Origin: Candidatus Tayloriibacteriota bacterium
GTDB taxonomy: Bacteria; Patescibacteriota; Minisyncoccia; Phycocordibacterales; SIBU01
DNA length: 64,000 bases
NCBI GenBank assembly: GCA_016188455.1
Contig: JACPHR010000018.1
Coordinates: 5,079-69,078, forward strand
Reading direction: 5' to 3'
Made by a program: the position numbers and the translations under genes. Shown piece by piece: positions 9,816 through 60,815 of the stretch (positions are counted from its first letter, which is position 1; every line of letters starts with the position of its first letter). The notes beneath the pieces were generated by a model. It did not search any database, was not told where the DNA came from, and saw only the letters and a list, made by a program, of their open reading frames with translations.

Positions 9816-9917
9816 GTTCTTCGTAGGATTTATATTGAAGATTATACCTTACATCATAAATAAAATATCTTCAAATAAGTGTGCTAGACGAGCACATCGG
9901 TGACAGTCCTATTCTTA

Positions 9918-9990
9918 CCTTGAATTACGAAACTCGGTTTCCGCGAAGAGAACTTCATCCCGCGCGCCTTGTCCGGACTGAGGCAAGCCC
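9918..9990. mobile_element. Truncated family-A element (left half only)
   Basis: ccttgaattacgaaactcggtttccgcgaagagaacttcatcccgcgcgccttgtccggac is the reverse complement of the right half of the nadE-internal copy. No matching right end is present. Confidence 0.4.
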
Positions 9991-10091: not shown

Positions 10092-10529
10092 TTGAGTCAA
10101 GACCCGCTCCATCTCGCTCTAGGGAATGCACAGCAAGTTAAACAACTGACGGGGCAGGAACAGCAAGCGTATTTGGCAGAGCCACAGAATCTAAATAGCC
10201 ACTCTTACGGAAAAAATAATCCGCTAAAGTTTAGTGATCCAAGCGGATTGTTCTGGTGGTACGGGTTCTACGATTGGACAGGCTACGAGGGTATTCGGGG
10301 GAGTGGCAATGAAAGCAGGAGAAGTGTTTGGTGGCCACAGCCGGGCATTAAATGCCATCCAGTGGTAATTGGTGTAATTGGTGTCAGTAATTGTAATTGG
10401 TGTCATAATTGGTGTCAGATAATTGGTGTCATAATTGGTGTCAGTAATTGGTGTCTAATTGGTGTCATAATTGGTGTCAGGTACCTTTTAGTAATTGGTG
10501 TCAGTAGTAATTGGTGTAATTGGTGGTAA
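10092..10529 (+). pseudogene. Orphan C-terminal fragment of an RHS/YD-repeat polymorphic toxin (NPxxxxDPxGL tip), running into a tandem-repeat array
   Basis: ...QNLNSHSYGKNNPLKFSDPSGL is the RHS core-end motif. No upstream RHS core and no recognisable toxin domain; the ORF continues into 11-bp repeats. Confidence 0.45.
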
Positions 10530-10548
10530 TTGGTGTCAGGTACCTTTT
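10372..10548. repeat. Tandem array of 11-12-bp units (AATTGGTGTCA[T/G]) ending in GGTGTCAGGTACCTTTT (two copies)
   Basis: About 12 direct units read directly. Terminal 17-mers at 10473-10489 and 10532-10548. Confidence 0.7.
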
Positions 10549-10579: not shown

Positions 10580-11260
10580 ATGGGACGAGCACCACGAGTT
10601 GATGTCGGCGGCGAGGTCTATCATATTATAAATCGTGCCAACGGCCGGCAGACAATCTTCCACACAAAAGAGGAGTATTTGCATTTTGAGCAACTTCTCA
10701 CTGAAGCTAAAGAACTGAATAGCATGCGTATTCTTGCCTATATCCTTATGTCAAACCACTGGCACTTGGTACTTCATCCTCACCGTGACGGCGATCTTTC
10801 TGTGTTCATGCAATGGCTTACCTTAACTCACACCCAGCAATATCACTCAAGAACAAAAACGATTGGCTACGGCCATCTCTATCAGGGACGATACAAGTCA
10901 TTTCTCGTCGAAAAAGACAACCATCTTCTCCAGCTTATCCGCTATGTGGAGCGCAATGCTTTTCGTGCTAAACTTGTTAAACAGGCGGAGAATTGGCGAT
11001 GGGGAAGTGCATACCGGAGAACCCAGGGTGCACCGCAAGCAAAAGCATTACTGAGTGATACCATTATTGAGCTTCCCAAAGATTATCTTGAGTGGTTGAA
11101 CGAAAAAGAAGATGCGGGCGCCCTTGCTATTATTCGCCAGTCAGTAAACAAAGGAACCCCATTGGGAGCAGTAAAATGGGTCAAGCGGACAGTTGATAAA
11201 TTTGATTTACTTTTAACCACGCGCTTGCGTGGAAGGCCGAAAGATGAAAAAGGTACCTGA
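10580..11260 (+). CDS. REP-associated tyrosine transposase (RAYT; IS200/IS605-like HUH Y1 transposase)
   Basis: YHIINRANGRQTIF...ILAYILMSNHWHLVL (HuH motif) ...YQGRYKS (catalytic Tyr region). About 226 aa, typical RAYT length. Confidence 0.75.
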   Translation: MGRAPRVDVGGEVYHIINRANGRQTIFHTKEEYLHFEQLLTEAKELNSMRILAYILMSNHWHLVLHPHRDGDLSVFMQWLTLTHTQQYHSRTKTIGYGHLYQGRYKSFLVEKDNHLLQLIRYVERNAFRAKLVKQAENWRWGSAYRRTQGAPQAKALLSDTIIELPKDYLEWLNEKEDAGALAIIRQSVNKGTPLGAVKWVKRTVDKFDLLLTTRLRGRPKDEKGT

Positions 11261-11480
11261 CACCAATTCCTCAATTCCTGACACCAATTCCCCAATTCCA
11301 ATTCCTGACACCAATTCCCATTGGGAGCAGTAAAATGGGTCAAGCGGACAGTTGATAAATTTGATTTACTTTTAACCACGCGCTTGCGTGGAAGGCCGAA
11401 AGATGAAAAAGGTACCTGACACCAATTCCTCTGACACCAATTCCTGACACCAATTCCCTGACACCAATTCCACAGGTTAC
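11247..11480. repeat. Inverted copy of the 11-bp repeat array (TGACACCAATT units) with AAAAGGTACCTGACACC ends, including a 106-bp tandem duplication of the RAYT 3' end
   Basis: 11161-11266 is repeated at 11320-11425 (period 159 bp). The unit orientation is the reverse complement of the upstream array. Confidence 0.65.
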
Positions 11481-11557
11481 TTTTCCCACTAATTACCTAA
11501 ATAATTAATAACGGTATGAAAAACCCACACCTCCTGGAGAGGTGCGGGGTAAGAGGT

Positions 11558-17275: not shown

Positions 17276-17284
17276 AAGCTATTG

Positions 17285-17393
17285 TGAATTACGAAACTGG
17301 CGTGCTTCAAGAAACCCCTCCCGCTTGCCCCCCGTAAGGCCTTGAGCGCGCGGGAGGGGTTTCTTTTCGCACTAAGCAAGCCCTCGTAATTCA
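17285..17393. mobile_element. Family-A palindromic MITE-like element
   Basis: tgaattacgaaactgg...ccctcgtaattca ends; inner stem gaaacccctcccgc/gcgggaggggtttc. Fills the intercistronic gap between two minus-strand genes. Confidence 0.55.
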
Positions 17394-17812: not shown

Positions 17813-19109
17813 CGATTCTTGGTTTTGGTATTGGTATTATAAATTTTCCTCCATTATCGCTAAAAACTTTCAAGTTATCAATGATTTCCTTTGAAAAGTT
17901 CCAAGCGAGCAAAATGGCGTAGTCGGGGCGGTTCTTAAGGAGTGCCAGGTCGGAGACAACCCGAATATAACCCCCGGCGTGGCCGCCCGGAGCGACCCGT
18001 CCCACTTTGAGGCGGGCTTTTTCCGAAATAAAACGAATATGGCGGTTGGTCAAGCCGACGTAGTTGATCAGGGTCATGCCTTTGGCCGGCGCGCTTACCG
18101 CCGCCACGGTTTTGCCTTGGCTCAAGAGCTTTTCCAGAAGTGCAATCAGCTCTTGGCGGTTTTTTTCAACCCGCCGAGCGAAGCCGCGCATGGTTTCCAG
18201 GCTGTGCAATTTACGCGATTCCTCCATTCGGATGAACTTCAAAACGCTTGGGTCGATTGGATGGGCATCTTTCCTCCCGACAAAAACCCGGAAGGAACCG
18301 CCGTGAATATCCGTCTGCTTTACCGTGAACACCGCCAGTCCGAATCGGGCAAAGAAAGGGACGAGAGGTTTGAGCGAAAGATATGAGAGGTGCTCGTGGT
18401 ATACGGTGTCGTATTCAAGGTTGTCCACGAGGTGCTGGAAGTAGGGCGATTCAAAAATAAAAACCCCGTCTTTTTTCAAAAGATATTTTACCGCCCGTAT
18501 CACCTCATCAAGGTCGTCGATATGGGCGAAGACATTGGCGCCGACGACGACCGACGCGGGTCCCTCCGCCCTTCGGATTTTTCCGGCGCTTTTCATGCCG
18601 AAGAAATCGCACAGAGTTTTGATGCCATTTTCTTTGTTGGCGATAGAGACGATATTGGGCGCGGGGTCAACGCCGACAACCCTCATGCCTTCCTTCTTGA
18701 AAGCGCCGAGTAGAGTGCCCACATTGCTGCCAATGTCAACGACTAGGCTTTTGGGCTTTAGTTTCAGTTCGCTTACCACCGAATGGGCAAAACTGTCCCA
18801 GTGGGACTGGCCGGTCTTGGTGGTGGATTGTTCGTAGGGGTAGTCGTGCTGGTAGAGTATTCGCGGGTCAACGACATGGCTTAACTGAGAGAGGCCGCAA
18901 TTTTTGCAAAGCAGCACGCGGAGAGGATAAAAAATTTCCGGCAGGTCAAGCTCGTCGGTCGCCCGAAACTGGTCTGCCGGCGGCGTCAGACCCAAGTCGA
19001 GGTAGAGCGCGAGATTCGGGCTTTTGCACATTCGGCAGTTTCGCGCCACTCGGTATAATTTTTCCAGCGCTCGGCTCTGGATGTCCGTTTTTTTGATTTT
19101 TCTCGGCAT
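17763..19109 (-). CDS. NDP-hexose C-methyltransferase (TylC3-like, zinc-ribbon plus class I MTase)
   Basis: N-terminal CxxC...CxxC (CRMCKSP...CKNCGL), then VVDIGSNVGTLL SAM motif and a C-terminal Methyltransf_14-like region. Confidence 0.55.
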   Translation of the reverse strand: MPRKIKKTDIQSRALEKLYRVARNCRMCKSPNLALYLDLGLTPPADQFRATDELDLPEIFYPLRVLLCKNCGLSQLSHVVDPRILYQHDYPYEQSTTKTGQSHWDSFAHSVVSELKLKPKSLVVDIGSNVGTLLGAFKKEGMRVVGVDPAPNIVSIANKENGIKTLCDFFGMKSAGKIRRAEGPASVVVGANVFAHIDDLDEVIRAVKYLLKKDGVFIFESPYFQHLVDNLEYDTVYHEHLSYLSLKPLVPFFARFGLAVFTVKQTDIHGGSFRVFVGRKDAHPIDPSVLKFIRMEESRKLHSLETMRGFARRVEKNRQELIALLEKLLSQGKTVAAVSAPAKGMTLINYVGLTNRHIRFISEKARLKVGRVAPGGHAGGYIRVVSDLALLKNRPDYAILLAWNFSKEIIDNLKVFSDNGGKFIIPIPKPRIVDAKEYKKNDSQKNKK

Positions 19110-19127
19110 GAATTTGGTGTGAATGGC

Positions 19128-19225
19128 GAAGTTCGCTTTCGGCGCAGAGAAACCCCTCCCGCGCGCCTTGGCTGGACTCTAGGCAAGCGGGAGGGGTTTC
19201 TTGAAGCGCGAGCTTCGCCATTCAC
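19128..19225. mobile_element. Diverged family-A element
   Basis: gtgaatggcgaagttcgc...gcgagcttcgccattcac ends (12/16 identity with the canonical TGAATTACGAAACTCG). Same internal gaaacccctcccgcgcgccttg...caagcgggaggggtttc core. Confidence 0.45.
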
Positions 19226-22451: not shown

Positions 22452-23489
22452 ATGAGCAAAAATTCGGCGAGGAGCAATCCGGGACTGTCCCGGGACAGAG
22501 CCGTCATTATTACCCAAACGCCAATGAGGATTACGCTGGCCGGCGGGGGCACCGATGTTAGCTGGTACAGCAAAATCAAAGGCGGCGCTTGGATAAGCGC
22601 TTCCATCAACCGCTATTTGGTAGTTACTTTGACGATGACCGAGGACCCGAATTTTATCGGCTACGGCTACGGCCAGGAAGCCACTCAAGGCAATTCCTAT
22701 AAAGACATACCCAACCCTTACGTCAAAGCTTGCTTGGAGCACGCGGGGGTAACCAAAGGAGTGAGTGTCAATATCACCTCGGAGGTTTCCGGCCGGTCAG
22801 GCTTGGGCGGGTCGGCGGCTCTGGAAGTCGGATTGCTCAACGCCCTTTATTGCTTCAAAAGAAAGTCGGTTTCTCGGTTGGAATTGGCCAAAAAGGCTTT
22901 TCAGATTGAAAGCGTCAAACTGAAGCGGGACTTTATCGGTCCGCAGGACCAGTACATCGTGGCCTTGGGCGGTTTTAATTACTTTGAAAGGGACACCTCG
23001 GGGCGGGTGACGGTGGAGCCTTTGCCGCTGTCCCTGCATACCATTTCAGAATTGGAGTCCAATCTTTTATTTTTTAGAACCGGCATATACCGAGACGCCC
23101 ATGCCGCTTTAGCGGACCAGCAAGAGCGCGCCGGCCGCAAAAACATCAAGGCCTTGGACGACATCAAAAAGCTGGGGCAAAAGGCCAGGGCCTATTTGCT
23201 GAAGGGGGACGTTGACAGTTTCGGCAAAACTTTCAACGAGCATTGGCGGATTAAAAAAACTCTGTCTCAAAAAGTTTCTAATCCCAAGATAGACCGATGG
23301 TACTCTGAAGCCATGAAGGCGGGGGCCTTGGGCGGCAAAATCATAGGCGCGGGCGGCGGCGGGTGGTTTGTGTTTTATGTCAACAAGAAAAAAGAGGCCT
23401 TCAGGGCCAGGATGGCGGCGATCGGTTTACAGGAACGCAAAGTGCGATTTGATTTGGAAGGCACTAAAGTATTGGTTAATCTAAGCTGA
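22452..23489 (+). CDS. GHMP sugar kinase (D-glycero-D-manno-heptose 7-phosphate kinase HddA-like)
   Basis: TPMRITLAGGGTD... and ...GRSGLGGSAALEVGLL (GHMP motif 2). Co-localised with gmhA and gmhB. Confidence 0.6.
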   Translation: MSKNSARSNPGLSRDRAVIITQTPMRITLAGGGTDVSWYSKIKGGAWISASINRYLVVTLTMTEDPNFIGYGYGQEATQGNSYKDIPNPYVKACLEHAGVTKGVSVNITSEVSGRSGLGGSAALEVGLLNALYCFKRKSVSRLELAKKAFQIESVKLKRDFIGPQDQYIVALGGFNYFERDTSGRVTVEPLPLSLHTISELESNLLFFRTGIYRDAHAALADQQERAGRKNIKALDDIKKLGQKARAYLLKGDVDSFGKTFNEHWRIKKTLSQKVSNPKIDRWYSEAMKAGALGGKIIGAGGGGWFVFYVNKKKEAFRARMAAIGLQERKVRFDLEGTKVLVNLS

Positions 23490-24073
23490 TGAAAAAACAA
23501 CAAAATTACATCAATACGTATCTCACGCTCGTAAAAAAAGTCGTCGCGGGTCTGGACACCGCGGAGATTGAGGCCGTGATTTCCCTTTTGGTTAAGCTTA
23601 AAAAAGCGGGCGGCCGGCTTTTCCTCTTGGGGGTCGGCGGCTCGGCGGCCAATTGTTCTCACGCCGTCAACGATTTCCGGAAAATCTGCCGCATTGAAGC
23701 CTATGCGCCGACCGACAATGTGGCCGAATTGACGGCCAGAACCAACGATGACGGTTGGGGAACCGTTTTTTGCAACTGGCTTGAAGTCAGTAAGCTCACT
23801 TCCTCGGACATGGTTATGGTTTTGTCGGTCGGCGGCGGCCTCATGGAAAAAAACGTAAGCCCCAATATCGTCAAGGCCTTGGAGTTCGCGCAAAAAGTCG
23901 GCAGTGTCATCACCGGCATCGTCAGCCGCGACGGCGGCTATACTCGAAAAGTGGCGACTGCCTCCATTCTCATTCCCATTGGCGAAGCGGATTTCATTAC
24001 GCCCCTCGCCGAAAGTTTTCAGGCGGTCATCTGGCATTTGCTGGTGACTCATCCGAAACTCGCCAAACATTGA
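23489..24073 (+). CDS. gmhA: Phosphoheptose (sedoheptulose-7-phosphate) isomerase
   Basis: SIS domain: ...GRLFLLGVGGSAANCSHAVNDF...VMVLSVGGG.... Confidence 0.75.
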   Translation: MKKQQNYINTYLTLVKKVVAGLDTAEIEAVISLLVKLKKAGGRLFLLGVGGSAANCSHAVNDFRKICRIEAYAPTDNVAELTARTNDDGWGTVFCNWLEVSKLTSSDMVMVLSVGGGLMEKNVSPNIVKALEFAQKVGSVITGIVSRDGGYTRKVATASILIPIGEADFITPLAESFQAVIWHLLVTHPKLAKH

Positions 24074-24967: not shown

Positions 24968-25822
24968 CTAGAACTGCCGCGGCGGGTGAAAAGTTTTTCT
25001 GGCCGATTCCAGTTTTTGGAGATTGCCGATATCTATGAAATAACCGGTTGTCGGGTAGGCATACAAGGCCTTTTTTGAAGCGAGCAACTTCGGGTAAATG
25101 TCCGCGCCAAAGTCGCTTTTCAGCGACTCTGGGATGAAATCAAAAATTTCCGGTTCCAAAACGTAAAATGAGCCGTTGACGAAGACGGGCTCGCCCCGCG
25201 TGTCTTTCACGGTCGGACGCTCTATAAATTCTAAAATCCTGTTCGTATCGTCAAATTTTATCATGCTCTTTGGGTCTGGCCCCTCTCTTTTGTAGACGTT
25301 CAAGGTGGCGAAGGCCTTTGTTTTTTTGTGGCCCTCAATCATTTTAGTGACATCAAGCTCTCTTACAATATCGGCGTATGTCACGATGAAACTTTCCTTG
25401 ATATAGGACTTCCGCAGTCGGCGCATTTCTTCGTTGCTTCGCTCGTTTGCTCCCGCAGTGTATATGCATACACTTTGGTCGCAAGCCTCGCTCGCGCCTC
25501 GAACTGCATCCGACTGCGTAGGTCCTATGATGAATTTTTTAGCGAGGGTTATGGCGCCGGCGGTGCCGAGGGGATTTTTCGGGTCTTCGTGCGTATAGGC
25601 GATGCGCACACCGAATTTGGAACCATCACCAAAGTAAGAAACTACTTTCTCCGGCAAATGACAAAGGGCGATGATAAAATCTTTGACGCCGTGGCTTTTT
25701 AATAAATCAACCGTGTGGAAAAGAATGGGTTTGCCCCCGACCTCCAGCATCGGTTTTGGGGTAGTATCGGTGAAAGGCCGCAGTCTTTCTCCTTTTCCTC
25801 CTGCGACAATTATGGCTTTCAT
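24968..25822 (-). CDS. Sugar-phosphate nucleotidyltransferase (HddC / mannose-1-P guanylyltransferase-like) carrying an in-frame 40-codon repeat-element insertion
   Basis: MKAIIVAGGKGERLRPFT...GGKPIL N-terminus. The segment IGPTQSDAVRGASEACDQSVCIYTAGANERSNEEMRRLRKSY is encoded by the family-B element (25406-25525). Confidence 0.7.
   Translation of the reverse strand: MKAIIVAGGKGERLRPFTDTTPKPMLEVGGKPILFHTVDLLKSHGVKDFIIALCHLPEKVVSYFGDGSKFGVRIAYTHEDPKNPLGTAGAITLAKKFIIGPTQSDAVRGASEACDQSVCIYTAGANERSNEEMRRLRKSYIKESFIVTYADIVRELDVTKMIEGHKKTKAFATLNVYKREGPDPKSMIKFDDTNRILEFIERPTVKDTRGEPVFVNGSFYVLEPEIFDFIPESLKSDFGADIYPKLLASKKALYAYPTTGYFIDIGNLQKLESARKTFHPPRQF
25406..25525. mobile_element. Family-B palindromic element inserted in frame within a coding sequence
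   Basis: 120 bp. Ends ggacttccgcagtcgg / ccgactgcgtaggtcc. Reverse-complement match to the intergenic copy at 39740-39862. Confidence 0.6.
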
Positions 25823-25939
25823 CCCGTTAGAAATAGGACGCGGACAGGCATCCTCCGCATCCCGAATTATTGCGAGTAAGATTCAACTTTGATATTGAAG
25901 TCATGTATTTTTTTTCGCGTCCGCGATTTCTAACGGGAC
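25821..25939. repeat. Family-D palindromic element, intercistronic, abutting an ATG
   Basis: atcccgttagaaat ... atttctaacgggac. The left end overlaps the start codon of the 24968-25822 gene. Confidence 0.5.
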
Positions 25940-26538
25940 CGTTTTATTAGTGGTACGGCGTCCGTAAGTTTTTTAATTATAAAATCCGGTTTGATATCGC
26001 CCAGTTGCCGCTCAATGATTCTTAAATTTTCCGCCGCGTCTATGTTGGCGAGAAGCATGGTTTTGCAGCCGGCCGCTTTGCCCGCCAGTACGTCCGCTAC
26101 GCCGTCTCCTATCGTCCATGAAGAGTTTAAGTCAATGTCGTGTTCTTTGGCGGCTTCCAGAAATAAACCCACCCCGGGTTTTCGGCAGTCGCATTTTTTT
26201 CTGAATTTTTTGACTTTGGCGAAGGGATGGTGGAAGCAGTAATACTCCGCGTCAATCGTTACGGCTTCTTTTTTCAGCAGGCCTTTAATTTTTCGGGAGA
26301 TTCGCGCGAAGTTGGCTTCGCTGGTTTTTGCCAACGCCAGATTCGGCTGGTTGGATATAATAATCAAAAGATACCCAAGTTTTTTGGCCCATTTTAAGAG
26401 CGGCACGATGCCAAACACCAGTCGAACCTGCGCGGTATTAAGCGGGCTCTCAATGACGCCGTATTCGGGGTCGTAGCGGAGCTCGTTTATGATGCCGTCT
26501 CTATCCAAAAATATAGCCCTTTTTTTCCTTGCAAACAT
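25930..26538 (-). CDS. gmhB: D,D-heptose 1,7-bisphosphate phosphatase (HAD-IIIA)
   Basis: AIFLDRDGIIN (HAD motif I), Zn-finger-like CFHHP...CDCRKP, ...IGDGVADV.... Start refined to MFARKK. Confidence 0.7.
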   Translation of the reverse strand: MFARKKRAIFLDRDGIINELRYDPEYGVIESPLNTAQVRLVFGIVPLLKWAKKLGYLLIIISNQPNLALAKTSEANFARISRKIKGLLKKEAVTIDAEYYCFHHPFAKVKKFRKKCDCRKPGVGLFLEAAKEHDIDLNSSWTIGDGVADVLAGKAAGCKTMLLANIDAAENLRIIERQLGDIKPDFIIKKLTDAVPLIKRSR

Positions 26539-26566
26539 GGGTTTAGAGTATACAATATCACTTATC

Positions 26567-27358
26567 ATGCAAAAGAAGCAATTACATTTCAACCGGAGCA
26601 TTTTTTTGGATTCTTCCAAGGTGAGCGAGATAGAGAAGTGGAACGGCACGGGAGTGATTGACGGCGTGACCACCAATCAGAGCATCATGCTCAAAGACGG
26701 TTTGACGCTGACACAATTGAAGCCGACTATCAAAGCCATTTGCAAAATAATGAAGGGCAAGCCGGTATCAATAGAGTTGACCGACAGCAAAGCCACAGTG
26801 GCGGAAATGGTGAGCGAAGCGAAAAAATACAGAGCGCTGGCGGCCAACGTCGTCATTAAGGTGCCCATGATACCGGGAGACGTAAAAAGTTTGGTGGTGA
26901 TTAAAAAACTTTGCGAGCTGAAAATAGCCGTCAACGTAACCGCCATGATGACTTTTGAGCAGTTGGTGGCCGCCTCTCTGGCCGTCAAGGACAACCCCTC
27001 TCCTTCTTTCGTCAGCTTGTTTTGGGCGAGAAGCATTGAAGACCACGAGCGATACAGAGGGGTGGAAGCGTTCGTTAAGAGCCATGAAATGATGGGGCCC
27101 GAATCTAAAGTTAACACTCATCCGGCAAAAATTGTCGCAGCCATCGGAGAGTTTCTGCAATCCGGCGGTTACGACAACCCGAAACTGATAGTGGGCAGCA
27201 TTAGAAACGTGTCGCAAGTGGGCGAAGCCATAGCCGCCGGCGGCAACATCCTTACGGTACAGCCGGCTATTTTGGAAGCCATGCTCTATAGCCAGCGCAC
27301 CGTTGAGACTAACGCCGATTTTGACAAGTCCTGGGTGGCCTTAAAACAACGCTCTTAA
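26567..27358 (+). CDS. Transaldolase (Fsa/TalC-type)
   Basis: ...FLDSS...GVIDGVTTNQSIM... transaldolase signature. Start refined to MQKKQL. Confidence 0.65.
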   Translation: MQKKQLHFNRSIFLDSSKVSEIEKWNGTGVIDGVTTNQSIMLKDGLTLTQLKPTIKAICKIMKGKPVSIELTDSKATVAEMVSEAKKYRALAANVVIKVPMIPGDVKSLVVIKKLCELKIAVNVTAMMTFEQLVAASLAVKDNPSPSFVSLFWARSIEDHERYRGVEAFVKSHEMMGPESKVNTHPAKIVAAIGEFLQSGGYDNPKLIVGSIRNVSQVGEAIAAGGNILTVQPAILEAMLYSQRTVETNADFDKSWVALKQRS

Positions 27359-29594: not shown

Positions 29595-29602
29595 TAACAT
29601 GA

Positions 29603-29710
29603 CCTTGAATTACAAAACTCATTGCTCCAAGAAACCTCTCCCGCTTGCCTAACTCCGGACAAGGCGCGCGGGAGGGGTTTCTCTCCGCGGATAATGAGTT
29701 TCGTAATTCA
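29603..29710. mobile_element. Family-A palindromic MITE-like element
   Basis: ccttgaattacaaaactcat...atgagtttcgtaattca perfect ends. Core ccggacaaggcgcgcgggaggggtttc. Ends 7 nt before the next ATG. Confidence 0.55.
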
Positions 29711-29717
29711 CAGTAAT

Positions 29718-31627: not shown

Positions 31628-31673
31628 TCCTTCCGCCTCTCAGGATACTCTGGATACTCTGAAAATCTCCTTG

Positions 31674-31709
31674 TTACCTAACTCAAGCGTACGCTTGAGT
31701 TAGGTAACA
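31674..31709. repeat. Perfect 36-bp palindrome (copy 1 of 2)
   Basis: gttacctaactcaagcgtacgcttgagttaggtaac. Identical 41-mer context at 43032-43072. Confidence 0.6.
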
Positions 31710-31784
31710 TAGGTGACAGGTGACCGGTGACAGATGTTTTCGCGACACAGTCAGTGTTTATGATTGACGGCTTTGTTGGTATAT

Positions 31785-39729: not shown

Positions 39730-39739
39730 TTTGGGTATA

Positions 39740-39862
39740 GGACTTACGCAATCGGATGCAGTTCGAGGCGCGAGCTCGGCTTGCGACCAAGCTGTAGTTA
39801 GATGCTACTGCGCGGGAGCAAACGAGCGAAGCAACGAAGAAATGCGCCGATTGCGTAAGTCC
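39740..39862. mobile_element. Family-B palindromic element (intergenic copy)
   Basis: Perfect 16-bp ends ggacttacgcaatcgg / ccgattgcgtaagtcc. Interior matches the copy inside the nucleotidyltransferase gene. Confidence 0.6.
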
Positions 39863-39974
39863 TAAAGAAATAATCACCACATGGTCGCATATTCATCGGC
39901 AAAAATCAATCAACTACCGCGCAGCAAACTGACTAGGTATACCGAGTCAGACTTGCTGGCAGTGCGGTAGTTGA

Positions 39975-40076
39975 CCCAGCACCATTTTCACCGATATGCC
40001 GCTTGTGATATATGAAAATCTTTCCCCAATCATGTATAACAGTTAGAAACGAGCATTCTGTAAAAATGGTGCTGGG
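39975..40076. repeat. Family-C palindromic element
   Basis: cccagcaccattttcacc...ctgtaaaaatggtgctggg; same ends as 4918-5021. Confidence 0.5.
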
Positions 40077-40160
40077 TTGATTATCCGCAAGCCACCTCAA
40101 AAATTTCCGGTGGGCGGATAATAAAAAATTGAAAAATCCAAACCGTTTGCTATGATTGCT

Positions 40161-40267
40161 TTGAATTACGAAACTCGTTTTTTGCGGAGAGAAACCTCTC
40201 CCGCGCGCCTTGTCCGGACGGGAGGCAAGCGGGAGGGGTTTCTCGAAGCAAGAGTTTCGTAATTCAA
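40161..40267. mobile_element. Family-A palindromic MITE-like element
   Basis: ttgaattacgaaactc...gagtttcgtaattcaa perfect 16-bp ends. Core ccttgtccggacgggaggcaagcgggaggggtttc. Lies 27 nt upstream of the nadE start. Confidence 0.55.
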
Positions 40268-40293
40268 GACATGATTACACCCATTACGTTTCT

Positions 40294-42105
40294 ATGCGTA
40301 TAGCCATACTACAACTCAATTACACAGTCGGAGATTTTGAAGGAAACGCGGCCAAGATTCTTCAAGGCTATCGTCGCGCCCGCAAAGAAGGGGCGGAGGT
40401 AGTGCTCGGGACGGAGCTCTCGCTCTTCGGCTACCCGCCGCTTGACCTGTTGGAACGCGCTGACTATATTGCGAAACAGTACGATGAATTAAAAAAATTG
40501 ACCGCCAAAATCGGCGGCGTCCCTCTGGTCATAGGCGTTGCCGAGAAAAACGAAAACAAAAAAGGCAAACCGCTTTTTAACAGCGCGGTTGTTATTCACA
40601 ACGGGCGGATTGTTCACCGCGCGCGCAAGACACTGCTTCCCACCTATGATGTCTTTGACGAGTCGCGTTATTTTGAAGCCAACGACGGGCCGGTTCGGCC
40701 TTGGGTATACAAAGGCAAAAAAATCCTTATACTGCTCTGTGAAGATATTTGGAACGGGTCCGAGAACGCCGACAATAAACTCTACCATACCTTGAATTAC
40801 GAAACTGGCGCTTCGAGAACTTCTTCCCGCCCGCCTGCCAGCGCCGGAGCCGCAGGCTATGGCGGGCAGGCTTGCTTCCCGTCCGGACAAGGCGCGCGGG
40901 ATGAAGTTCTCTTAGCGGAAACCGAGTTTCGTAATTCAAGGTACCACAAGGACCCGCTTATAGAAGCCAAGGCGCTTTCTCCCGATTTGGTATTGGTCAT
41001 CAACGGCTCGCCCTATTTTTGGGGCAAGGGAGACGGGCGGCTGTCGCTTGTCTCGGGCATCGGCCGGCGCTTGCGCTGCCCGATATTTTACGCCAATCAA
41101 GTGGGCGGCAATACGGACCTGGTTTTTGACGGGCGAAGTTTCGCGGTGGACGGAAATGGCAGATGCATCGGAGCCGCCAAACCGTTCGCCGAGGATGTCT
41201 TGATGGTTGATACCAAAACAGCCAAAGCGGTTGCATATTCCTCCGATGCTGGCAAACCGGAAGAACTTTACAACGCGCTTGTCTGCGGGGTCCGTGACTA
41301 CTTGAGGAAAATCAAAAACACCAAAGGAGTGGTGGTGGGGCTTTCGGGCGGCGTTGATTCGGCGCTGGTCGCTACCATCGCCGTGGACGCGCTCGGTGCG
41401 GACAAAGTGCGCGGCATTGCTATGCCCTCGACCTTCTCCTCCGATGAGAGTGTCATTGACGCCAAGACCCTGGCGGAAAATCTTGGCATTCAATTTGACG
41501 TTGTTCCCATTAAAAAAGCCTACGGCTCTTTCGGAGAAATACTCGGGCCGGTCATTGGCTGGGAAAAGCCGCTTGCCTTGGCCGAAGAGAATGTGCAAGC
41601 GCGCGTTCGGGGCCTGATTTTGATGGCCATTTCAAATCGCGAGGGCAATATTGTGCTCACCACCGGAAACAAATCGGAGATTGCGGTGGGCTACTGCACG
41701 CTCTACGGGGACATGGCCGGGGGCTACGCCGTGATTTCGGACATTCCCAAGACGGTTGTCTACAGCTTGGCGGAATACCGGAACGCTAAAGCCAAGAAAG
41801 ACATCATTCCGCGCCGCAGCCTTGAAAAGGCGCCGTCCGCCGAGCTTCGGCCAAACCAGAAGGACCAGGACACCTTGCCGCCTTATGACGTGCTTGACGA
41901 TATTTTAGAGCAGTATGTTGAAGAGCAGAAAGGTCTAGCTGATATTGTTAAATCGGGGCACAATCCAAAAACGGTGGAGTGGGTAATCCAGACGATTGAC
42001 AGGAACGAGTATAAACGTCGGCAGATGCCGCCCGGGCCGAAGGTCACGGGCAAAGCCTTCGGCAGCGGCCGGCGGATTCCCATCGCGGCCAAGTTTATCC
42101 TGTAG
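40294..42105 (+). CDS. nadE: Glutamine-dependent NAD+ synthetase carrying an in-frame repeat-element insertion
   Basis: N-terminal CN-hydrolase domain (...ILILLCEDIW...) plus C-terminal NAD synthetase (VVGLSGGVDSALVA, ...SDE..., ...GYCTLYGDM...). Start refined to MRIAILQL. Confidence 0.8.
   Translation: MRIAILQLNYTVGDFEGNAAKILQGYRRARKEGAEVVLGTELSLFGYPPLDLLERADYIAKQYDELKKLTAKIGGVPLVIGVAEKNENKKGKPLFNSAVVIHNGRIVHRARKTLLPTYDVFDESRYFEANDGPVRPWVYKGKKILILLCEDIWNGSENADNKLYHTLNYETGASRTSSRPPASAGAAGYGGQACFPSGQGARDEVLLAETEFRNSRYHKDPLIEAKALSPDLVLVINGSPYFWGKGDGRLSLVSGIGRRLRCPIFYANQVGGNTDLVFDGRSFAVDGNGRCIGAAKPFAEDVLMVDTKTAKAVAYSSDAGKPEELYNALVCGVRDYLRKIKNTKGVVVGLSGGVDSALVATIAVDALGADKVRGIAMPSTFSSDESVIDAKTLAENLGIQFDVVPIKKAYGSFGEILGPVIGWEKPLALAEENVQARVRGLILMAISNREGNIVLTTGNKSEIAVGYCTLYGDMAGGYAVISDIPKTVVYSLAEYRNAKAKKDIIPRRSLEKAPSAELRPNQKDQDTLPPYDVLDDILEQYVEEQKGLADIVKSGHNPKTVEWVIQTIDRNEYKRRQMPPGPKVTGKAFGSGRRIPIAAKFIL
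40789..40940. mobile_element. Family-A palindromic element inserted in frame within nadE
   Basis: Perfect 18-bp ends ccttgaattacgaaactc / gagtttcgtaattcaagg. Encodes ...TLNYETGASRTSSRPPASAGAAGYGGQACFPSGQGARDEVLLAETEFRNSRY... without interrupting the frame. Confidence 0.6.
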
Positions 42106-42976: not shown

Positions 42977-43031
42977 CTTATTATCTGCCCGCAGAATATC
43001 CAGCACTTGCTTTATCTTAATCTTACCTAAT

Positions 43032-43067
43032 GTTACCTAACTCAAGCGTACGCTTGAGTTAGGTAAC
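43032..43067. repeat. Perfect 36-bp palindrome (copy 2 of 2)
   Basis: gttacctaactcaagcgtacgcttgagttaggtaac; identical to 31674-31709. Confidence 0.6.
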
Positions 43068-43218
43068 ATAGGGCAATCGTTATTCGGTAAAAATGGCGTT
43101 GAGTCAACCTACCTAGCGGTGTGATTTTTCTCTAGTGAATGGGGTTATAGAAGCCGATTGAAAAGGCCGCCAGTGTTTGCTATGATTACGCGCACTGTCG
43201 CATTGAGTCACATAATAA

Positions 43219-45471: not shown

Positions 45472-45691
45472 TATTGAATTACAAAACTCTTGCCAAGAGA
45501 TTCCCTTTCCACAAGCCTCGGCTCCGGACAAGGCGCGTGGAAGCGGAAAAGGTCTCTTTCCGCGAACAATCCGCATCTTTTAAGGGTATCACCGATACCC
45601 AGAAATGGCTTTTAGCCGCTATCGCGGCTAAAAGCCATTGTTGAACATTTTATGTAGCGGGAGGTGACTGAAAAAGAATTTCGTAACTTAG
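45472..45691. mobile_element. Family-A-related composite element (diverged ends, extra internal hairpins) flanked by a 10-bp direct repeat AGTTTCTTAA
   Basis: ttgaattacaaaactcttgcc...agaatttcgtaactta. Core ccggacaaggcgcgtggaagcgg. Internal 15-bp perfect stem atggcttttagccgc/gcggctaaaagccat. Direct repeats at 45462-45471 and 45692-45701. Confidence 0.45.
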
Positions 45692-54059: not shown

Positions 54060-54088
54060 AGCGCGCGACTTAGGGTTGCGCGCTTTTT
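54060..54088 (+). terminator. Rho-independent terminator
   Basis: agcgcgcgac-ttagg-gttgcgcgct followed by tttttctttt. Confidence 0.5.
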
Positions 54089-54093
54089 CTTTT

Positions 54094-54172
54094 CGCCAGT
54101 TTTCTCTATTCTCTATTTTCTATTCTCTACTCTACTCTCTATTCTCTACCCTCTATTTTCTAACTTTCGGAT
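54094..54172. repeat. Short tandem CTATTCTCT/CTATTTTCT repeat tract
   Basis: tctctattctctattttctattctctactctactctctattctctaccctctattttc. Inverted and direct copies lie at 55074-55140 and 55203-55252. Confidence 0.6.
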
Positions 54173-55073
54173 AATTTTCCACAAACCAATTAACGGTCTG
54201 CTCTATGCCTCCGTCAACCGGAGTAAACTTAAAATCCGGCAGGTACTTTTTCAGTTTCGTTCCGTCCGACGGTTTGCGGAACTGGCCGTCGGGTTTAGAG
54301 CCGTCAAAAACGATTTTGCCCGTGAACCCCATTTTTTTGGCGATGACGAGGACGAGGTCGCGTATGGAGGTTTCAATACCGGAGGTAAATATGATCGGCG
54401 CTGACTCTTTGTAATTATCAAGCATCCACAGCGCCAGTTTGGCAATGTCATCCGTCAACACCAGTTCGCGCAAAGGTTTGCCGCTGCCCCAGACGACCAG
54501 GTCCGTATTATTTTTCTTGGCCAGGTAGCATTTATGGATGAGAGATGGCACCACGTGGCCGTCCGTGAAATTAAAATTATCATTCGGGCCGTAGATGTTT
54601 GTGGGAATGGCGATAATGTAATTGCAGCCCCACTCGCTGTTATAGGCGCTGCTTTGCACTTCAAGCATCCTTTTGGCGTAGGCATAGCCGAAATTTGAAG
54701 GATGAGGCGGGCCGTTATGCAGGTCTTTTTCGTTGAGCGGGTAGGGGCACTTGTCGGGGAAGACGCAGGTGGACATGAAAGAAATCAGTTTTTTGACGCC
54801 GGTCAATCGCGCCGCTTCCAAGACGTTGATGTTTATCATGATGTTGTTGCGGAAGTATTCCCCGGAGTGAATCATGTTGCCGCCGATGCCGCCCACTTGG
54901 GCGGCCAGATGAATCACTTTCGCCGGCCGGTGCTTTTTGAAGAGCTTCACGGTTTGGTTAAAATCGGTCAAGTCGCCGTCTTTCCGAGAAAGAAAAACCA
55001 TATTTGGCAGACCCAATCTTTTAATGGCCGAACCGATAAGGCCGCTGCCTCCCGTGACTAATGTTATAGACAT
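54153..55073 (-). CDS. GDP-L-fucose synthase family epimerase/reductase (paralog)
   Basis: ITLVTGGSGLIGSAI...YAYAKRM...NIYGPNDNFN...HVVPSLI pattern of Fcl/WcaG. Confidence 0.65.
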   Translation of the reverse strand: MSITLVTGGSGLIGSAIKRLGLPNMVFLSRKDGDLTDFNQTVKLFKKHRPAKVIHLAAQVGGIGGNMIHSGEYFRNNIMININVLEAARLTGVKKLISFMSTCVFPDKCPYPLNEKDLHNGPPHPSNFGYAYAKRMLEVQSSAYNSEWGCNYIIAIPTNIYGPNDNFNFTDGHVVPSLIHKCYLAKKNNTDLVVWGSGKPLRELVLTDDIAKLALWMLDNYKESAPIIFTSGIETSIRDLVLVIAKKMGFTGKIVFDGSKPDGQFRKPSDGTKLKKYLPDFKFTPVDGGIEQTVNWFVENYPKVRK

Positions 55074-55252
55074 AGATAATAGATGTTAGAAAACAGATAA
55101 TAGACGGTAGAAATTAGAGAATAGAAAATAGAGATTAGACTTTTTAAGAAATTGCCTTGATAAATTTGTTAAGCATTTTCGTAATTATTAGTTTTCATTT
55201 CTTTCTGTGTTCTATTTTCTATTCTCTACTCTCTATTTTCTATTCTCTCATA
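55074..55252. repeat. Inverted pair of CTATTTTCTATTCTCT-type repeat tracts with a 70-nt AT-rich spacer
   Basis: gagaatagaaaatagag (55115-55131) opposed to ctctattttctattctc (about 55225-55245). Confidence 0.55.
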
Positions 55253-56266
55253 TAAGATTTTTTGCCACTCTACAGTGCGAGAGAGTCCCTCGTCAAGCGG
55301 CACATAATCGGTTTTCTTGAATTCATTTTTCACTCTCGTCATATCTAGTTGGGTATCAAGTGGCGCGCCCGCTCCCAAGTTCTCTGATCTTGAAACCGCC
55401 GGAAAAACCACCGGCACCTTGAGCAATTTGCCGATTTTCTTCGCTAAGTCAGCAATGGTGATGGTTCCCGCGCCGCCGACATTGTAAATTGGTTCTTTGC
55501 CGAAAAGCAGTATCCGCCAGAGAATTTCCACGGCGTCGCTTACATAACAGTAGGTTCTTTTAACCTCACCATGATCCAGGAGCGTTAATTTGCCCCGCAG
55601 AGCTTTTTCAATGAAAGCATTGATAACCCGCTTGTCTCCCGGTTTCGTGCCGGGACCGTAGGCTAACGATAGCCGCGCCGATTTTGCGTCAACGGCTTGG
55701 GCTCTTTCGGCGTTGACGATGGCCTCTCCGCATCTTTTGCCCTCAATGTAGCAAGCTCTCGGGTGCGCGGTGTTTGTCGTGCCTATCATGTCCTCCCCGT
55801 AGGGGGTCGTCTCCAATCCGCTGTAGACTTCGCTGGTGCTCATAAAAAGGAACTTGCCGCCCTTCTTTAATTTTTGAAAGAGAGCGATGGTCACTGTCGT
55901 GTTAAGCCCCATGGTTTTTAGGGGATTCTCCAGAAATTTCCCGGGTTGGCCGTAGCCGGCGGCATGGATAATATAATCCGCTTGGGGCAGTGAGGCCATC
56001 AGTTTCGCATTGGTCAAATCGCCCTGTACGAAGCCCACATTTTCTCCAAAATAAGAAAGATATTCGGGAAATTTATTTTGCACGACGGCGACGATATCCA
56101 TCTTCACGCCTTTGTTCCGCAGCTCTCTTAAAGTTGCCAAAAAATACGTGCCAATGAGCCCGGACGCGCCAGTCAAGAGTATGGTTTTGCCGTCAAGTTC
56201 GCGAAAATCAATCTTCGGCAAGATTTCCAAAACGTCATTTTTAATTATGGTCGCAAGCTCATTCAT
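55226..56266 (-). CDS. NAD-dependent epimerase/dehydratase
   Basis: ILLTGASGLIGTYF..., YxxxK (YIEGKRCGE). Confidence 0.65.
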   Translation of the reverse strand: MNELATIIKNDVLEILPKIDFRELDGKTILLTGASGLIGTYFLATLRELRNKGVKMDIVAVVQNKFPEYLSYFGENVGFVQGDLTNAKLMASLPQADYIIHAAGYGQPGKFLENPLKTMGLNTTVTIALFQKLKKGGKFLFMSTSEVYSGLETTPYGEDMIGTTNTAHPRACYIEGKRCGEAIVNAERAQAVDAKSARLSLAYGPGTKPGDKRVINAFIEKALRGKLTLLDHGEVKRTYCYVSDAVEILWRILLFGKEPIYNVGGAGTITIADLAKKIGKLLKVPVVFPAVSRSENLGAGAPLDTQLDMTRVKNEFKKTDYVPLDEGLSRTVEWQKILYERIENRE

Positions 56267-58062: not shown

Positions 58063-59353
58063 CGGATTGCTTGTTTTGGTCAGAGACTAATTTTAAGGTC
58101 CACCGGTTTTTTATGAAAATTTTTCCTTCCGGTTTTTCCGCCGGATGCGCCTGGTTGAAGTACGCCGACGGCCCGACGGTTACGGTTTTTTCTATGGTGT
58201 GTTTAGCGAGATAATTCATGACCGAAAAACGATTCAGGCTTAAACTGACGAAATAATTTCCCGGCATCAGCAATTTTTCCGGGAACAGCAAAGTTGCTTG
58301 GTATCTGCCCTTGGCGACCCGTTCAAGTTCCGGCTGCCAGTCGGAAGTGAAACTTCTTGTTAGCACGTCGCCAAGGGCGTTTTTTAAGTACACGCCCGCG
58401 CGGAAAAGCGAAAGGTTGGCGTGCGCCTCAAAGTCAATTTCAACGGTAAACGGCGTGTCCGCGTCCAAATGGGCCGTACGGATGTTTTTCTGGCTTACCG
58501 CGAAATCATGAAGTGTCACTTCGCCTTTAAGTTTCAACGGAAAAAGTTTTTCGTGGCCGGAGCTTTTTTCGTACTCGGCGGCCAGATAATGCCGGATAAC
58601 GTCTCTCGTCTCGCCCGCTTTGACGATTTTGCCGTGAGACAGAAGAATTGATGTGGGGCAAAGCTTTTCCACCGCTGACATATTGTGGCTGACGAAAAGA
58701 ATCGTCCGGCCGGCTTTGCCGGTGACCTCTTCCATTTTACCCAAACACTTTTTTTGAAACTCGGCGTCGCCGACGGCCAGCACTTCGTCAACCAGAAGGA
58801 TGTCGGGTTCAATGTGGGCGGCGATGGAGAAAGCCAGACGGACGTACATGCCGGTGGAATAGCGTTTGACCGGCGTATCAATGAAATCGCCGATGCCGGA
58901 GAAATCAACGATGGCGTTAAATTTCTCTCCGATTTCTTTGCGAGTCATGCCCAAGATGGCCCCGTTGAGGAAGACATTTTCGCGGCCCGACAGCTCGGGA
59001 TGAAAACCGGTGCCCACTTCCAGGAGCGAGGCCACCCGGCCGTTCAGTCTGACTTCCCCTTCGGTCGGCGGGGTGATTCGGGAGAGAATTTTCAGCAGGG
59101 TTGACTTGCCGGCGCCGTTAGCCCCGATAATGCCCACCGCTTCGCCTTTTTTGACTGAAAGGTTTATGTTTCGCAACGCCCAAAAAGTTTCCATTCGGTT
59201 TGTGCCCATGATGTTTCTGCCGATGCCCGCCAGCGCCGAGAGCGGATGTTTTAATTTTTCCGATATTACGTCGCGCAGCGCTACGTATCCCCGTTTCCTT
59301 CCGGTGATGTTATAACGTTTGCCGACGTTTTTTATTTCTATAATGGATAACAT
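58052..59353 (-). CDS. wzt: Polysaccharide ABC transporter ATP-binding protein with C-terminal carbohydrate-binding domain
   Basis: Walker A GANGAGKST, LSGGQ-like YSTGMYVRL, Walker B ILLVDE, plus an about 180-aa C-terminal extension typical of Wzt/TagH. Confidence 0.75.
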   Translation of the reverse strand: MLSIIEIKNVGKRYNITGRKRGYVALRDVISEKLKHPLSALAGIGRNIMGTNRMETFWALRNINLSVKKGEAVGIIGANGAGKSTLLKILSRITPPTEGEVRLNGRVASLLEVGTGFHPELSGRENVFLNGAILGMTRKEIGEKFNAIVDFSGIGDFIDTPVKRYSTGMYVRLAFSIAAHIEPDILLVDEVLAVGDAEFQKKCLGKMEEVTGKAGRTILFVSHNMSAVEKLCPTSILLSHGKIVKAGETRDVIRHYLAAEYEKSSGHEKLFPLKLKGEVTLHDFAVSQKNIRTAHLDADTPFTVEIDFEAHANLSLFRAGVYLKNALGDVLTRSFTSDWQPELERVAKGRYQATLLFPEKLLMPGNYFVSLSLNRFSVMNYLAKHTIEKTVTVGPSAYFNQAHPAEKPEGKIFIKNRWTLKLVSDQNKQSDES

Positions 59354-59420
59354 ACGAAAATTATAAGATACGAAAACTATGCGAATGGCTACGAAATGAT
59401 ACGAAAATTGCGGGGTACGA
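59341..59420. repeat. AT-rich TACGAA-motif repeat (about 60 bp; direct copy of 60705-60770) overlapping the wzt start codon
   Basis: catacgaaaattataagatacgaaaactatgcgaatggctacgaaatgatacgaaaatt. Confidence 0.45.
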
Positions 59421-59836: not shown

Positions 59837-59854
59837 GATTTTTTTATTTAAATT

Positions 59855-59900
59855 TTCGTTGTAATTCGTCATCATTCGCATAATTTTCGTATGTTACACG
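59855..59900. repeat. Inverted partial copy of the TACGAA-motif repeat
   Basis: Reverse complement cgtgtaacatacgaaaattatgcgaatgatgacgaattacaacgaaaatt. Confidence 0.4.
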
Positions 59901-60709
59901 ATGTCCGCGAAATACCGTTCGGTTTTTTTGAAAAAGAAAATGCCAGCGGCCAAAAGCGCCAGGGCGGCCAAGGAGGAAATCGCCAGCGACTGCCAGCCTA
60001 TCGGTCCCGTGCCCAAGAGCCCCGCCCGGGCGGCTTTGATGACGCCGGTCATGGGATTAAAAGAGAGCAGCCAAGCGTATTTGCCGGCGATGCTTGAGGG
60101 GTAAATGACCGGCGTGAGGAAAAGCAGCAGTTGCATGAAGAAAGGCAATACGTAGCGCACATCGCGGTATTTGACGTTTATGGAGGCTAGTATCAATCCC
60201 GCGCCCACCGCCGTGGCGGAGGTGATAATCAAGAGAATCGGTATAAGCGCTATCCCGGAGAATCGCGGCGCGTAGCCGTAGTGGAACATGAGGAAGATTA
60301 AAGCCAGGCTGGCGAAAAAAAGGTCAACGAATTTGTTGGCGGTGTCGGCCAGCGGCAGAATGATTCGCGGGAAATAAACTTTGGTGACGATGGCGGCATT
60401 GCCGATGAGCGAGTTGCTGGTATCGCTCAAGGCGCTCGCGAACAGTTGCCAGAATAAGAGGCCGGTATAGACGAAGATGGGGTAGGGAATGCCGTCCGAC
60501 GGCACCTTGATCAGTTTTCCGAAGAACACGCTGAACACCACCATGGTCATAAACGGCTGGAAAATGGCCCAGCCGATGCCGACAATGGTTTGTTTGTAGC
60601 GCACCTTGATGTCGCGCCAAACGAAAAAGTACAGCAGTTCTTTGTAGCGCCAGATTTCCCTCAAGTCTTCAAGGCTGAAGGTTTTTTTTGGTTTTATTAC
60701 AGTTACCAT
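59894..60709 (-). CDS. wzm: Polysaccharide ABC transporter permease (ABC-2 type)
   Basis: Six predicted TM helices; ...LLYFFVWRDIKVRYKQTIVGIGWAIFQPF... typical Wzm N-terminus. Confidence 0.7.
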   Translation of the reverse strand: MVTVIKPKKTFSLEDLREIWRYKELLYFFVWRDIKVRYKQTIVGIGWAIFQPFMTMVVFSVFFGKLIKVPSDGIPYPIFVYTGLLFWQLFASALSDTSNSLIGNAAIVTKVYFPRIILPLADTANKFVDLFFASLALIFLMFHYGYAPRFSGIALIPILLIITSATAVGAGLILASINVKYRDVRYVLPFFMQLLLFLTPVIYPSSIAGKYAWLLSFNPMTGVIKAARAGLLGTGPIGWQSLAISSLAALALLAAGIFFFKKTERYFADIV

Positions 60710-60770
60710 ACGAAAATTATACGATACGAAAACTATGCGAATAATTACGAATGATTACGAAAATTTAAGA
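60705..60770. repeat. AT-rich TACGAA-motif repeat overlapping the wzm start codon
   Basis: catacgaaaattatacgatacgaaaactatgcgaataattacgaatgattacgaaaatt. Confidence 0.45.
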
Positions 60771-60815
60771 AATGAAAAAGAAATGAAAAGGATATAATAT
60801 TGGCGGTACTGGTAT

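Follow-up and report, generated by a model that had tools for sequence, protein, structure and literature searches.

The window, by which we mean the whole stretch of 64,000 nucleotides, contains a heptose-nucleotide gene cluster, and in one gene of this setting, encoding a sugar-1-phosphate nucleotidyltransferase, lies a palindromic element (copy A). A second copy of the element (copy B) sits between a divergent gene pair. Foldseek relates the nucleotidyltransferase to GDP-mannose pyrophosphorylases, MurU, HddC and RmlA. The initial annotation had called the gene HddC-like, a label that fits given the GHMP kinase, SIS/GmhA-like and HAD phosphatase genes nearby. As judged from their domains, these genes would provide the remaining steps of the NDP-heptose pathway, and all of them are intact. 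An identical nucleotidyltransferase protein is recorded in a Candidatus Taylorbacteria MAG. All features are collected in Table 1.

Table 1. Features of the locus and copies of the element at other loci (positions are those of the window unless a locus is named).
Feature	Position or identifier	Strand	Evidence or remark
Host gene, sugar-1-phosphate nucleotidyltransferase, 284 aa, HddC / GDP-mannose pyrophosphorylase-like	24968..25822	-	Pfam, homologues, AF2, Foldseek, PDB
GHMP-kinase gene	22452-23489	+	Pfam, also on identical Logan contigs
SIS/GmhA-like gene	23489-24073	+	Pfam, also on identical Logan contigs
HAD phosphatase gene	25930-26676		Pfam
Element copy A, 124-nt palindromic MITE, TAGGACC...GTCCTA on minus strand, inside nucleotidyltransferase gene	25404..25527	-	Hairpin, end matches, family alignment
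43 extra codons, residues 97-139, FIIGPTQSDAVRGASEACDQSVCIYTAGANERSNEEMRRLRKS	25406..25534	-	0/89 homologues, Pfam split, PDB 8yre_D, pLDDT 37-62
Target-site duplication, upstream copy, CATCA on minus strand	25528..25532	-	4/5 bases match other copy
Target-site duplication, downstream copy, TATCA on minus strand	25399..25403	-	
Element copy B, 127 nt, intergenic, perfect 18-bp terminal inverted repeats	39738..39864	+	
KsgA/RsmA with insert	P0123, P0124, P0126		
MutY-like HhH-GPD glycosylase with insert	P0125		
ComF-like phosphoribosyltransferase, insert near N-terminus	P0121		
Alpha/beta hydrolase beginning with element	L011		
Copies in KsgA / MutY-like gene	L023 3296-3419; L024 2441-2564; L025 613-734		Terminal stems non-canonical yet complementary
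Copies just upstream of or overlapping gene starts (ftsZ, alpha/beta hydrolase, ComF-like)	L007 591-712; L011 10445-10568; L026 482-605		
Perfect 5-bp duplications	L012 (CTACA); L015 (TAAAA); L016 (TTTTT and TAGTA); L020 (ATTTA); L022 (TTAAA); L008 (ATTGA)		

An in-frame insertion in the nucleotidyltransferase gene

The minus-strand ORF of the gene (24968-25822) runs through copy A as IGPTQSDAVRGASEACDQSVCIYTAGANERSNEEMRRLRKSY. In an alignment of 90 sequences, residues 97-139 are filled by the window protein only and by none of the 89 homologues, while the flanks of the insert (LAKK on one side, [F/Y]IKESFIVTYADI on the other) align unambiguously. The window protein has 284 aa against 213-268 aa for the other 119 relatives among the matches listed. 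Also, the Pfam NTP_transferase match is interrupted, its first part reaching residue 99, and the alignment to PDB 8yre_D is split at the insert, where query residues 99-142 stand opposite only five residues (98-102) of the chain. The claim that the element was inserted in frame and that the segment is no conserved part of the enzyme is therefore borne out.

At the DNA level the insertion amounts to 129 nt, or 43 codons, made up of the 124-nt element and 5 bp of duplicated target (plus-strand copies TGATA at 25399-25403 and TGATG at 25528-25532). This sum accounts both for the 43 codons and for the apparent '[F/Y]-I' duplication in the protein. The initial annotation had placed an element of exactly 40 codons at 25406-25525; the quoted ends and peptide are present there, but that length covers the GGAC...GTCC core only and the inserted unit, target duplication included, is 43 codons long. 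A tryptic peptide of the 284-aa protein with the insert is GASEACDQSVCIYTAGANER, and the predicted empty-site junction reads ...AAAAAATTCATCA joined straight to AGGAAAG....

The second copy had been reported at 39740-39862 in opposite orientation, almost identical to the first and with perfect 16-bp terminal repeats. It is indeed there: aligning 25406-25525 to 39740-39862 gives strong nucleotide identity (approximately 90%, with a stretch of 39 nt identical). Its terminal repeats are perfect as well, although they measure 18 bp rather than 16 since the inverted repeat takes in the flanking TA. In copy A the repeats have decayed, with two mismatches per end compared to the canonical 18-mer, TAGGACTTACGCAATCGG. 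When up to three mismatches are allowed, this 18-mer has four matches in the window, which are the four element ends (0.05 expected from shuffles). Both copies fold over their whole length into a single hairpin on either strand (z -5.3 to -8.6), at -59.5 kcal/mol (z -6.9) for copy A and -71.1 kcal/mol (z -8.3) for copy B. The observation of a palindromic element is thus not due to chance. Around copy B a recognisable target duplication is absent. In the region 39730-40293, upstream of nadE, copy B (39738-39864) stands beside a family-1 element (approximately 40161-40270) in a small nest of repeats.

Palindromes of this kind break short-read assemblies, with contigs ending inside them, and we compared the window with the Logan assembly of run SRR12113431. 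Two contigs match the window at 100% identity; one ends at 25447 and the other starts at 25484, so that both break in the centre of the palindrome and each contains one gene/element junction including bases specific to copy A. This independent support covers both junctions and copy A outside its central 36 nt. The presence of copy A in the gene is not an assembly artefact. An empty-site allele was not seen in the Logan contigs of the run. It might still be argued that the 43 residues form an ancestral or lineage-specific functional domain of which the intergenic copy is a fragment, or that the junction is an assembly chimera. Nothing besides the open frame speaks for this explanation. The segment is missing from each of the 89 aligned homologues, and its DNA turns up in intergenic regions and, in other genomes, inside genes of other kinds, flanked by target duplications; a chimera is contradicted by the two junctions, which were assembled independently and without a mismatch. 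Its probability is practically nil, as it is already refuted.

In the AlphaFold2 model, based on the same 90 sequences, confidence is very high on both flanks (pLDDT >94) and low (37-62) across residues 97-139. Located on this model, the insert is a low-confidence loop that leaves the otherwise confident fold between helix 86-96, which follows the GTAGA motif, and a strand (145-149) that runs towards the conserved Asp151. Catalytic residues in this fold lie at the C-terminal ends of the strands, so an insert at the N-terminal start of strand 145-149 would point away from the active site. Given this position at the edge of the sheet opposite to the catalytic Asp151 end, the enzyme probably still folds and works. 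Also, the protein has lost none of the residues that are invariant, or nearly so, in the 90-sequence alignment.

Alternatively, the insertion may have inactivated the gene, in which case the open frame would be coincidental and the ORF of 284 aa a pseudogene of recent origin. Three of the six combinations of orientation and phase are stop-free for copy A, and 124 + 5 nt never shifts the frame; hence an intact ORF is expected in about half of the cases without any selection. By itself the intact ORF is therefore weak evidence, and a dead gene could stay open. Yet the element is not young: it differs from copy B by approximately 10%, and decay is visible in its terminal repeats. The conserved residues are nonetheless kept, the remainder of the AlphaFold2 model is confident and the other genes of the pathway are intact. 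Moreover, KsgA orthologues that are 80% identical retain an insert of the same family in the same frame (see below). Taking these observations together, we consider a pseudogene unlikely.

A family of elements with a 5-bp target duplication

Searches with a pattern built on the two element ends yield three loci in GTDB species genomes, all of them Patescibacteria/Parcubacteria MAGs, and 19 in JGI metagenomes. From these 22 loci we left out L009, an unrelated, GC-rich chance match to the pattern, and two others turned out to be the same locus. Five further copies come from nhmmer, which adds one, and from protein matches. Altogether, 26 copies besides those of the window were found in Patescibacteria/Parcubacteria MAGs and metagenomes. 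Several copies may be present per sequence: two in the 64-kb window, two in L013 and two in L016, a contig of 1.2 kb. Within the window, nhmmer did not detect a third copy. Contigs reached by way of the neighbouring proteins all fall inside the window.

Across the 26 copies the element can be described as TAGGAC...GTCCTA with a length of 122-129 nt (modal length 124 nt). The ends are conserved over approximately 35 nt, TAGGACnnnCGCAnTCGGATGCAGTTCGAGGCGC ... GCAACGAAGAAATGCGCCGAnTGCGnnnGTCCTA, and the centre varies among subfamilies with its self-complementarity kept. Directly outside TAGGAC...GTCCTA a perfect 5-bp direct repeat flanks 7 of the 26 copies, against 0.9% when flanks are paired between different copies (P ~3e-9). 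If at least four of the five bases are required to match, the number increases to 12 of 26 (P ~3e-8). An example is CTACA-TAGGAC...GTCCTA-CTACA in L012. No other boundary or length, 6 bp included, shows perfect flank repeats. The duplicated targets are AT-rich, and the duplication is not seen in about half of the copies, copy B among them.

These data also argue against several other boundaries. A duplicated TA as in IS630-like elements would leave an insert of 122 nt, out of frame, and the repeats of the family are 5 bp long and lie outside the TA. A duplication of 7 or 9 bp at copy A is unsupported across the copies. Neither is the insert an intein: these need at least approximately 130 aa, a Cys/Ser N-junction and a C-junction of His-Asn followed by Cys/Ser/Thr, and the 43 residues found here start with FIIG and end with RKS followed by Y. 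Judged by its sequence features, the element is a MITE: a size below approximately 300 bp, too small to encode a transposase, inverted repeats, a fixed duplication and multiple copies all agree with this class.

An autonomous partner, either a transposase or a full-length IS with the same ends, was sought with nhmmer over the window and the collected loci (approximately 300 kb), and only short copies were found. The phage and plasmid collections and viral contigs contain no match to the element. In Rfam 15 nothing in the window reaches the gathering score or passes the E-value threshold, the sole match being a miRNA at chance level (E 0.12).

The window harbours further repeats. The element discussed here is unrelated to a separate palindromic family with ends TTGAATTACGAAACT...AGTTTCGTAATTCAA, as had been noted at first reading, and about seven copies of that family are present (9906-9988, 17280-17380, 19108-19224, 29601-29716, 40150-40273, 40786-40953 and 45474-45546). 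The remark that both families have an in-frame coding copy is correct too: the other family contributes 40792-40939, within the gene for the glutamine-dependent NAD+ synthetase NadE (40294-42105), of which residues 157-224 (approximately 64) have no counterpart in PDB 4f4h_A. Two identical, perfect palindromes of 39-42 nt, TGTTACCTAACTCAAGCGTACGCTTGAGTTAGGTAACA, occupy 31672-31713 and 43030-43072 and may represent either a terminator common to both sites or one more family of small repeats, the third in the window; independent Logan contigs stop within the former copy, at 31701. ORF 10580-11260 is flanked by arrays (10374-10540 and 11158-11484) in which a unit of 12-14 nt, TAATTGGTGTCA, recurs together with its complement, CTGACACCAATTCC; these arrays include a perfect 115-nt duplication (11158-11272 and 11317-11431). 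Pyrimidine-rich arrays, TCTCTATTYTCTA, with a spacing of 12-14 nt are located on either side of ORF 54153-55073 (54083-54168 and 55189-55274), with inverted partners at 55095-55139. Finally, three intergenic gaps of a polysaccharide cluster (59328-59409, 59839-59892 and 60684-60777) carry AT-rich repeats of approximately 80% identity with reiterated ATACGAAAA, which may be shared promoter or operator regions.

Copies in other genes, reading frame and hairpin pairing

A search with concatenated open-frame peptides of the element leads to host proteins whose domains can be recognised (Table 1). Compared to solved structures, the KsgA insert lies between query residues 106 and 152, and in the MutY-like protein the insert (query 177-215) stands in place of three residues of PDB 8uuc_A. 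Two KsgA orthologues of 80% identity share the insert at the same site and in the same frame. Other searches were less productive. The 43-aa peptide matches only 20 clusters of the representative library, and nearly all of these are ORFs of 38-156 aa that reflect gene calls over intergenic copies; clustering at 50% hides the host proteins. A second concatenated six-frame peptide search, aimed at other subfamilies, gave 8000 word candidates of which none scored, and is uninformative.

Every copy within a gene of recognisable domain is read in the orientation and frame seen for the window copy. The initial annotation had suggested looking for further copies and their frame; such copies do exist, 26 in total, and those in genes are read in one frame. 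This frame, GxTQSDAVRGASEACDQ...AGANERSNEEMRRLRKS, is hydrophilic and charge-balanced (GRAVY -0.7 to -1.3). Of the remaining frames, those frequently free of stops are either hydrophobic and devoid of acidic residues, or very basic. The N-terminal cases are ambiguous, because the start codon may lie after or inside the element (L011 has an ATG in the terminal repeat). With three firm internal and two ambiguous N-terminal events, the rule of a shared frame is suggestive, not proven. Palindromic elements give spurious or extended ORF calls, and gene callers indeed extend ORFs through the copies at L007, L011 and L026. L007 had been considered as an in-gene copy in another frame and was rejected; its ORF is read antisense across ftsZ, whose start lies downstream of the element.

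How common are such insertions? The DNA pattern, which is blind to coding status, found 25 distinct copies, of which one (the window copy) lies inside a gene and one at the N-terminus of a gene. Long ORFs, as a crude measure, cover approximately 89% of the window. Set against this coding share, two out of 25 copies would make coding insertions rare survivors, which fits an occasional toleration of the one hydrophilic frame. As the duplicated targets are AT-rich, the intergenic bias may stem in part from a preference for certain targets and not from purifying selection. Among the intergenic copies, 9 of 21 have a frame-preserving length, which is no enrichment. It had been proposed that the genome systematically tolerates or selects these insertions; toleration stands, but given the low number of copies in genes and the lack of an excess of frame-preserving lengths, selection does not.

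As for the hairpin itself, over 35 consensus pairs in 28 copies, 96% of the cells are standard pairs and 22 pairs are changed on both sides. None of 500 shuffles reaches the observed pairing or number of double changes, and slid controls give 3-10 such pairs. Between the inserts of the two KsgA orthologues there are 12 differences over 124 bases, two compensated double changes among them (simulated P ~0.01), and 42 of 45 pairs are retained against 38 expected. The MutY-like copy has its apical part in common with the KsgA copies but departs from the canonical repeat at 8 of 17 terminal positions, each time with compensation. On the strand that is sense in all in-gene copies, cells of the G-U type are commoner than those of the A-C type (57 against 11). 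The terminal stem of copy A, on the other hand, carries uncompensated mismatches.

Compensated pairing inside a gene, as in the KsgA orthologues, is not predicted for a purely neutral passenger. Going by the changes in the KsgA and MutY-like inserts, the hairpin may be under selection even once it is fixed in coding sequence. This would imply a role at the mRNA level in CPR bacteria, where the elements would not be inert passengers but would regulate through RNase III or ribosome pausing, or be bypassed from one 5-bp repeat to the next, and we regard such a role as very unlikely. The broader explanation, according to which the hairpin is a functional RNA or ssDNA unit (through RNase III processing, ribosome pausing or bypass) and the peptide is incidental or not made at all, draws on the same covariation along the full stem, the double changes and the G-U excess. 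It is highly improbable: intergenic copies show no orientation bias relative to neighbouring genes, Rfam gives no match and the terminal stem of copy A is left uncompensated. Furthermore, a skipped or spliced insert would permit stops and any frame, and the in-gene copies use one hydrophilic frame. Template-switch correction of quasi-palindromes and conversion from other copies can produce compensated changes too, with no selection involved. Each of these processes, like selection for a hairpin in RNA or ssDNA, is a possible source of the observed pattern.

Summarizing, copy A is most probably a non-autonomous MITE of a Patescibacteria/Parcubacteria-wide family and a near-neutral, tolerated accident, the CPR counterpart of the Rickettsia palindromic elements (RPE), rather than an adaptation. 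The course of events may have been as follows. An element of approximately 124 nt, with conserved ends of about 35 nt that begin with TAGGAC and self-complementary over its whole length, would be mobilised in trans by a transposase whose cuts are staggered by 5 bp, as the duplication indicates. In the nucleotidyltransferase gene it would have landed on CATCA, in the codons for Phe97-Ile98. Since 124 + 5 equals 129 nt, the frame should be kept wherever a 124-nt copy lands. The orientation and phase at this site would then place the ribosome in the one frame of the element that is hydrophilic, charge-balanced and stop-free. Finally, the 43 residues would link helix 86-96 to strand 145-149 as a flexible loop on the surface of an enzyme that probably folds and works.

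Comparison with known repeats and implications

In architecture and behaviour, the RPE appear to be the closest known analogue of the family described here, and we treat them as an analogue only. They go back to Ogata et al. 2000 (Science 290:347). The RPE are palindromes of 105-146 bp that are fused in frame into conserved genes and are neutral or mildly harmful (PMC2229807, PMC10969869). Both groups consist of palindromic repeats of 100-150 bp that form one long stem-loop. They occur between genes as well as in frame in conserved housekeeping or metabolic genes of small-genome hosts, with the peptide placed where the fold tolerates it. For gmk of Rickettsia, neutral toleration is reported. 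In-frame insertion at fold-compatible sites, as in RPE, is found here in the nucleotidyltransferase, KsgA and the MutY-like glycosylase. Differences concern the host phylum (Patescibacteria, here Candidatus Taylorbacteria, against Rickettsia) and the ends: the present family has a clear 5-bp duplication and TA-bearing 18-bp inverted repeats, whereas the duplication of RPE is given as '?' in a review table (PMC2229807). The coding fraction differs as well, with two of the 25 pattern-found copies here compared to nearly half of the RPEs (PMC10969869).

Other families are less similar. Correia/NEMIS, RUP and other IS630-type MITEs resemble our element in size, in 5'-TA-3' repeat tips, in long stem-loop transcripts and in open frames that are sometimes fused to genes (PMC2229807). 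They duplicate TA, however, whereas here the duplication comprises 5 bp beyond the TA, which itself is part of the element; also, an IHF site or cognate IS is not known for the present family. The enterobacterial repeats ERIC/IRU and YPAL are imperfect palindromes of approximately 127-168 bp with a contiguous open frame and an occasional in-frame gene fusion (PMC2229807). By their description they occur in unrelated hosts and their fusions mostly concern gene ends or new small ORFs, while the insertions reported here are internal to conserved catalytic domains. For REP/BIME, PMC3733652 gives palindromes of 20-40 bp with a GTAG/CGTC tag and no duplication. We rejected this class in view of the 124-nt length, the 5-bp duplication and the different ends. 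The 'byps' of Magnusiomyces mitochondria and the insert of T4 gene 60 are likewise short mobile palindromic inserts in protein genes with matching short flank repeats, yet those are untranslated and carry stops. The insert studied here is stop-free, always in one frame and of a length divisible by three.

No description of MITEs in Patescibacteria/Parcubacteria was found in the literature we searched. The element is an undescribed MITE family, and RPE-like in-frame insertion is repeated in a new bacterial group. The insertions in the nucleotidyltransferase, KsgA and MutY, together with the one in NadE by the other family, provide natural experiments on loop tolerance in folds that have been studied well. 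It is known that proteins and rRNAs of CPR/Patescibacteria contain additional segments of unexplained origin. The MITE offers a concrete and datable source for at least some of these, as its footprint of 124 + 5 nt always comprises whole codons and one of its frames is harmlessly hydrophilic.
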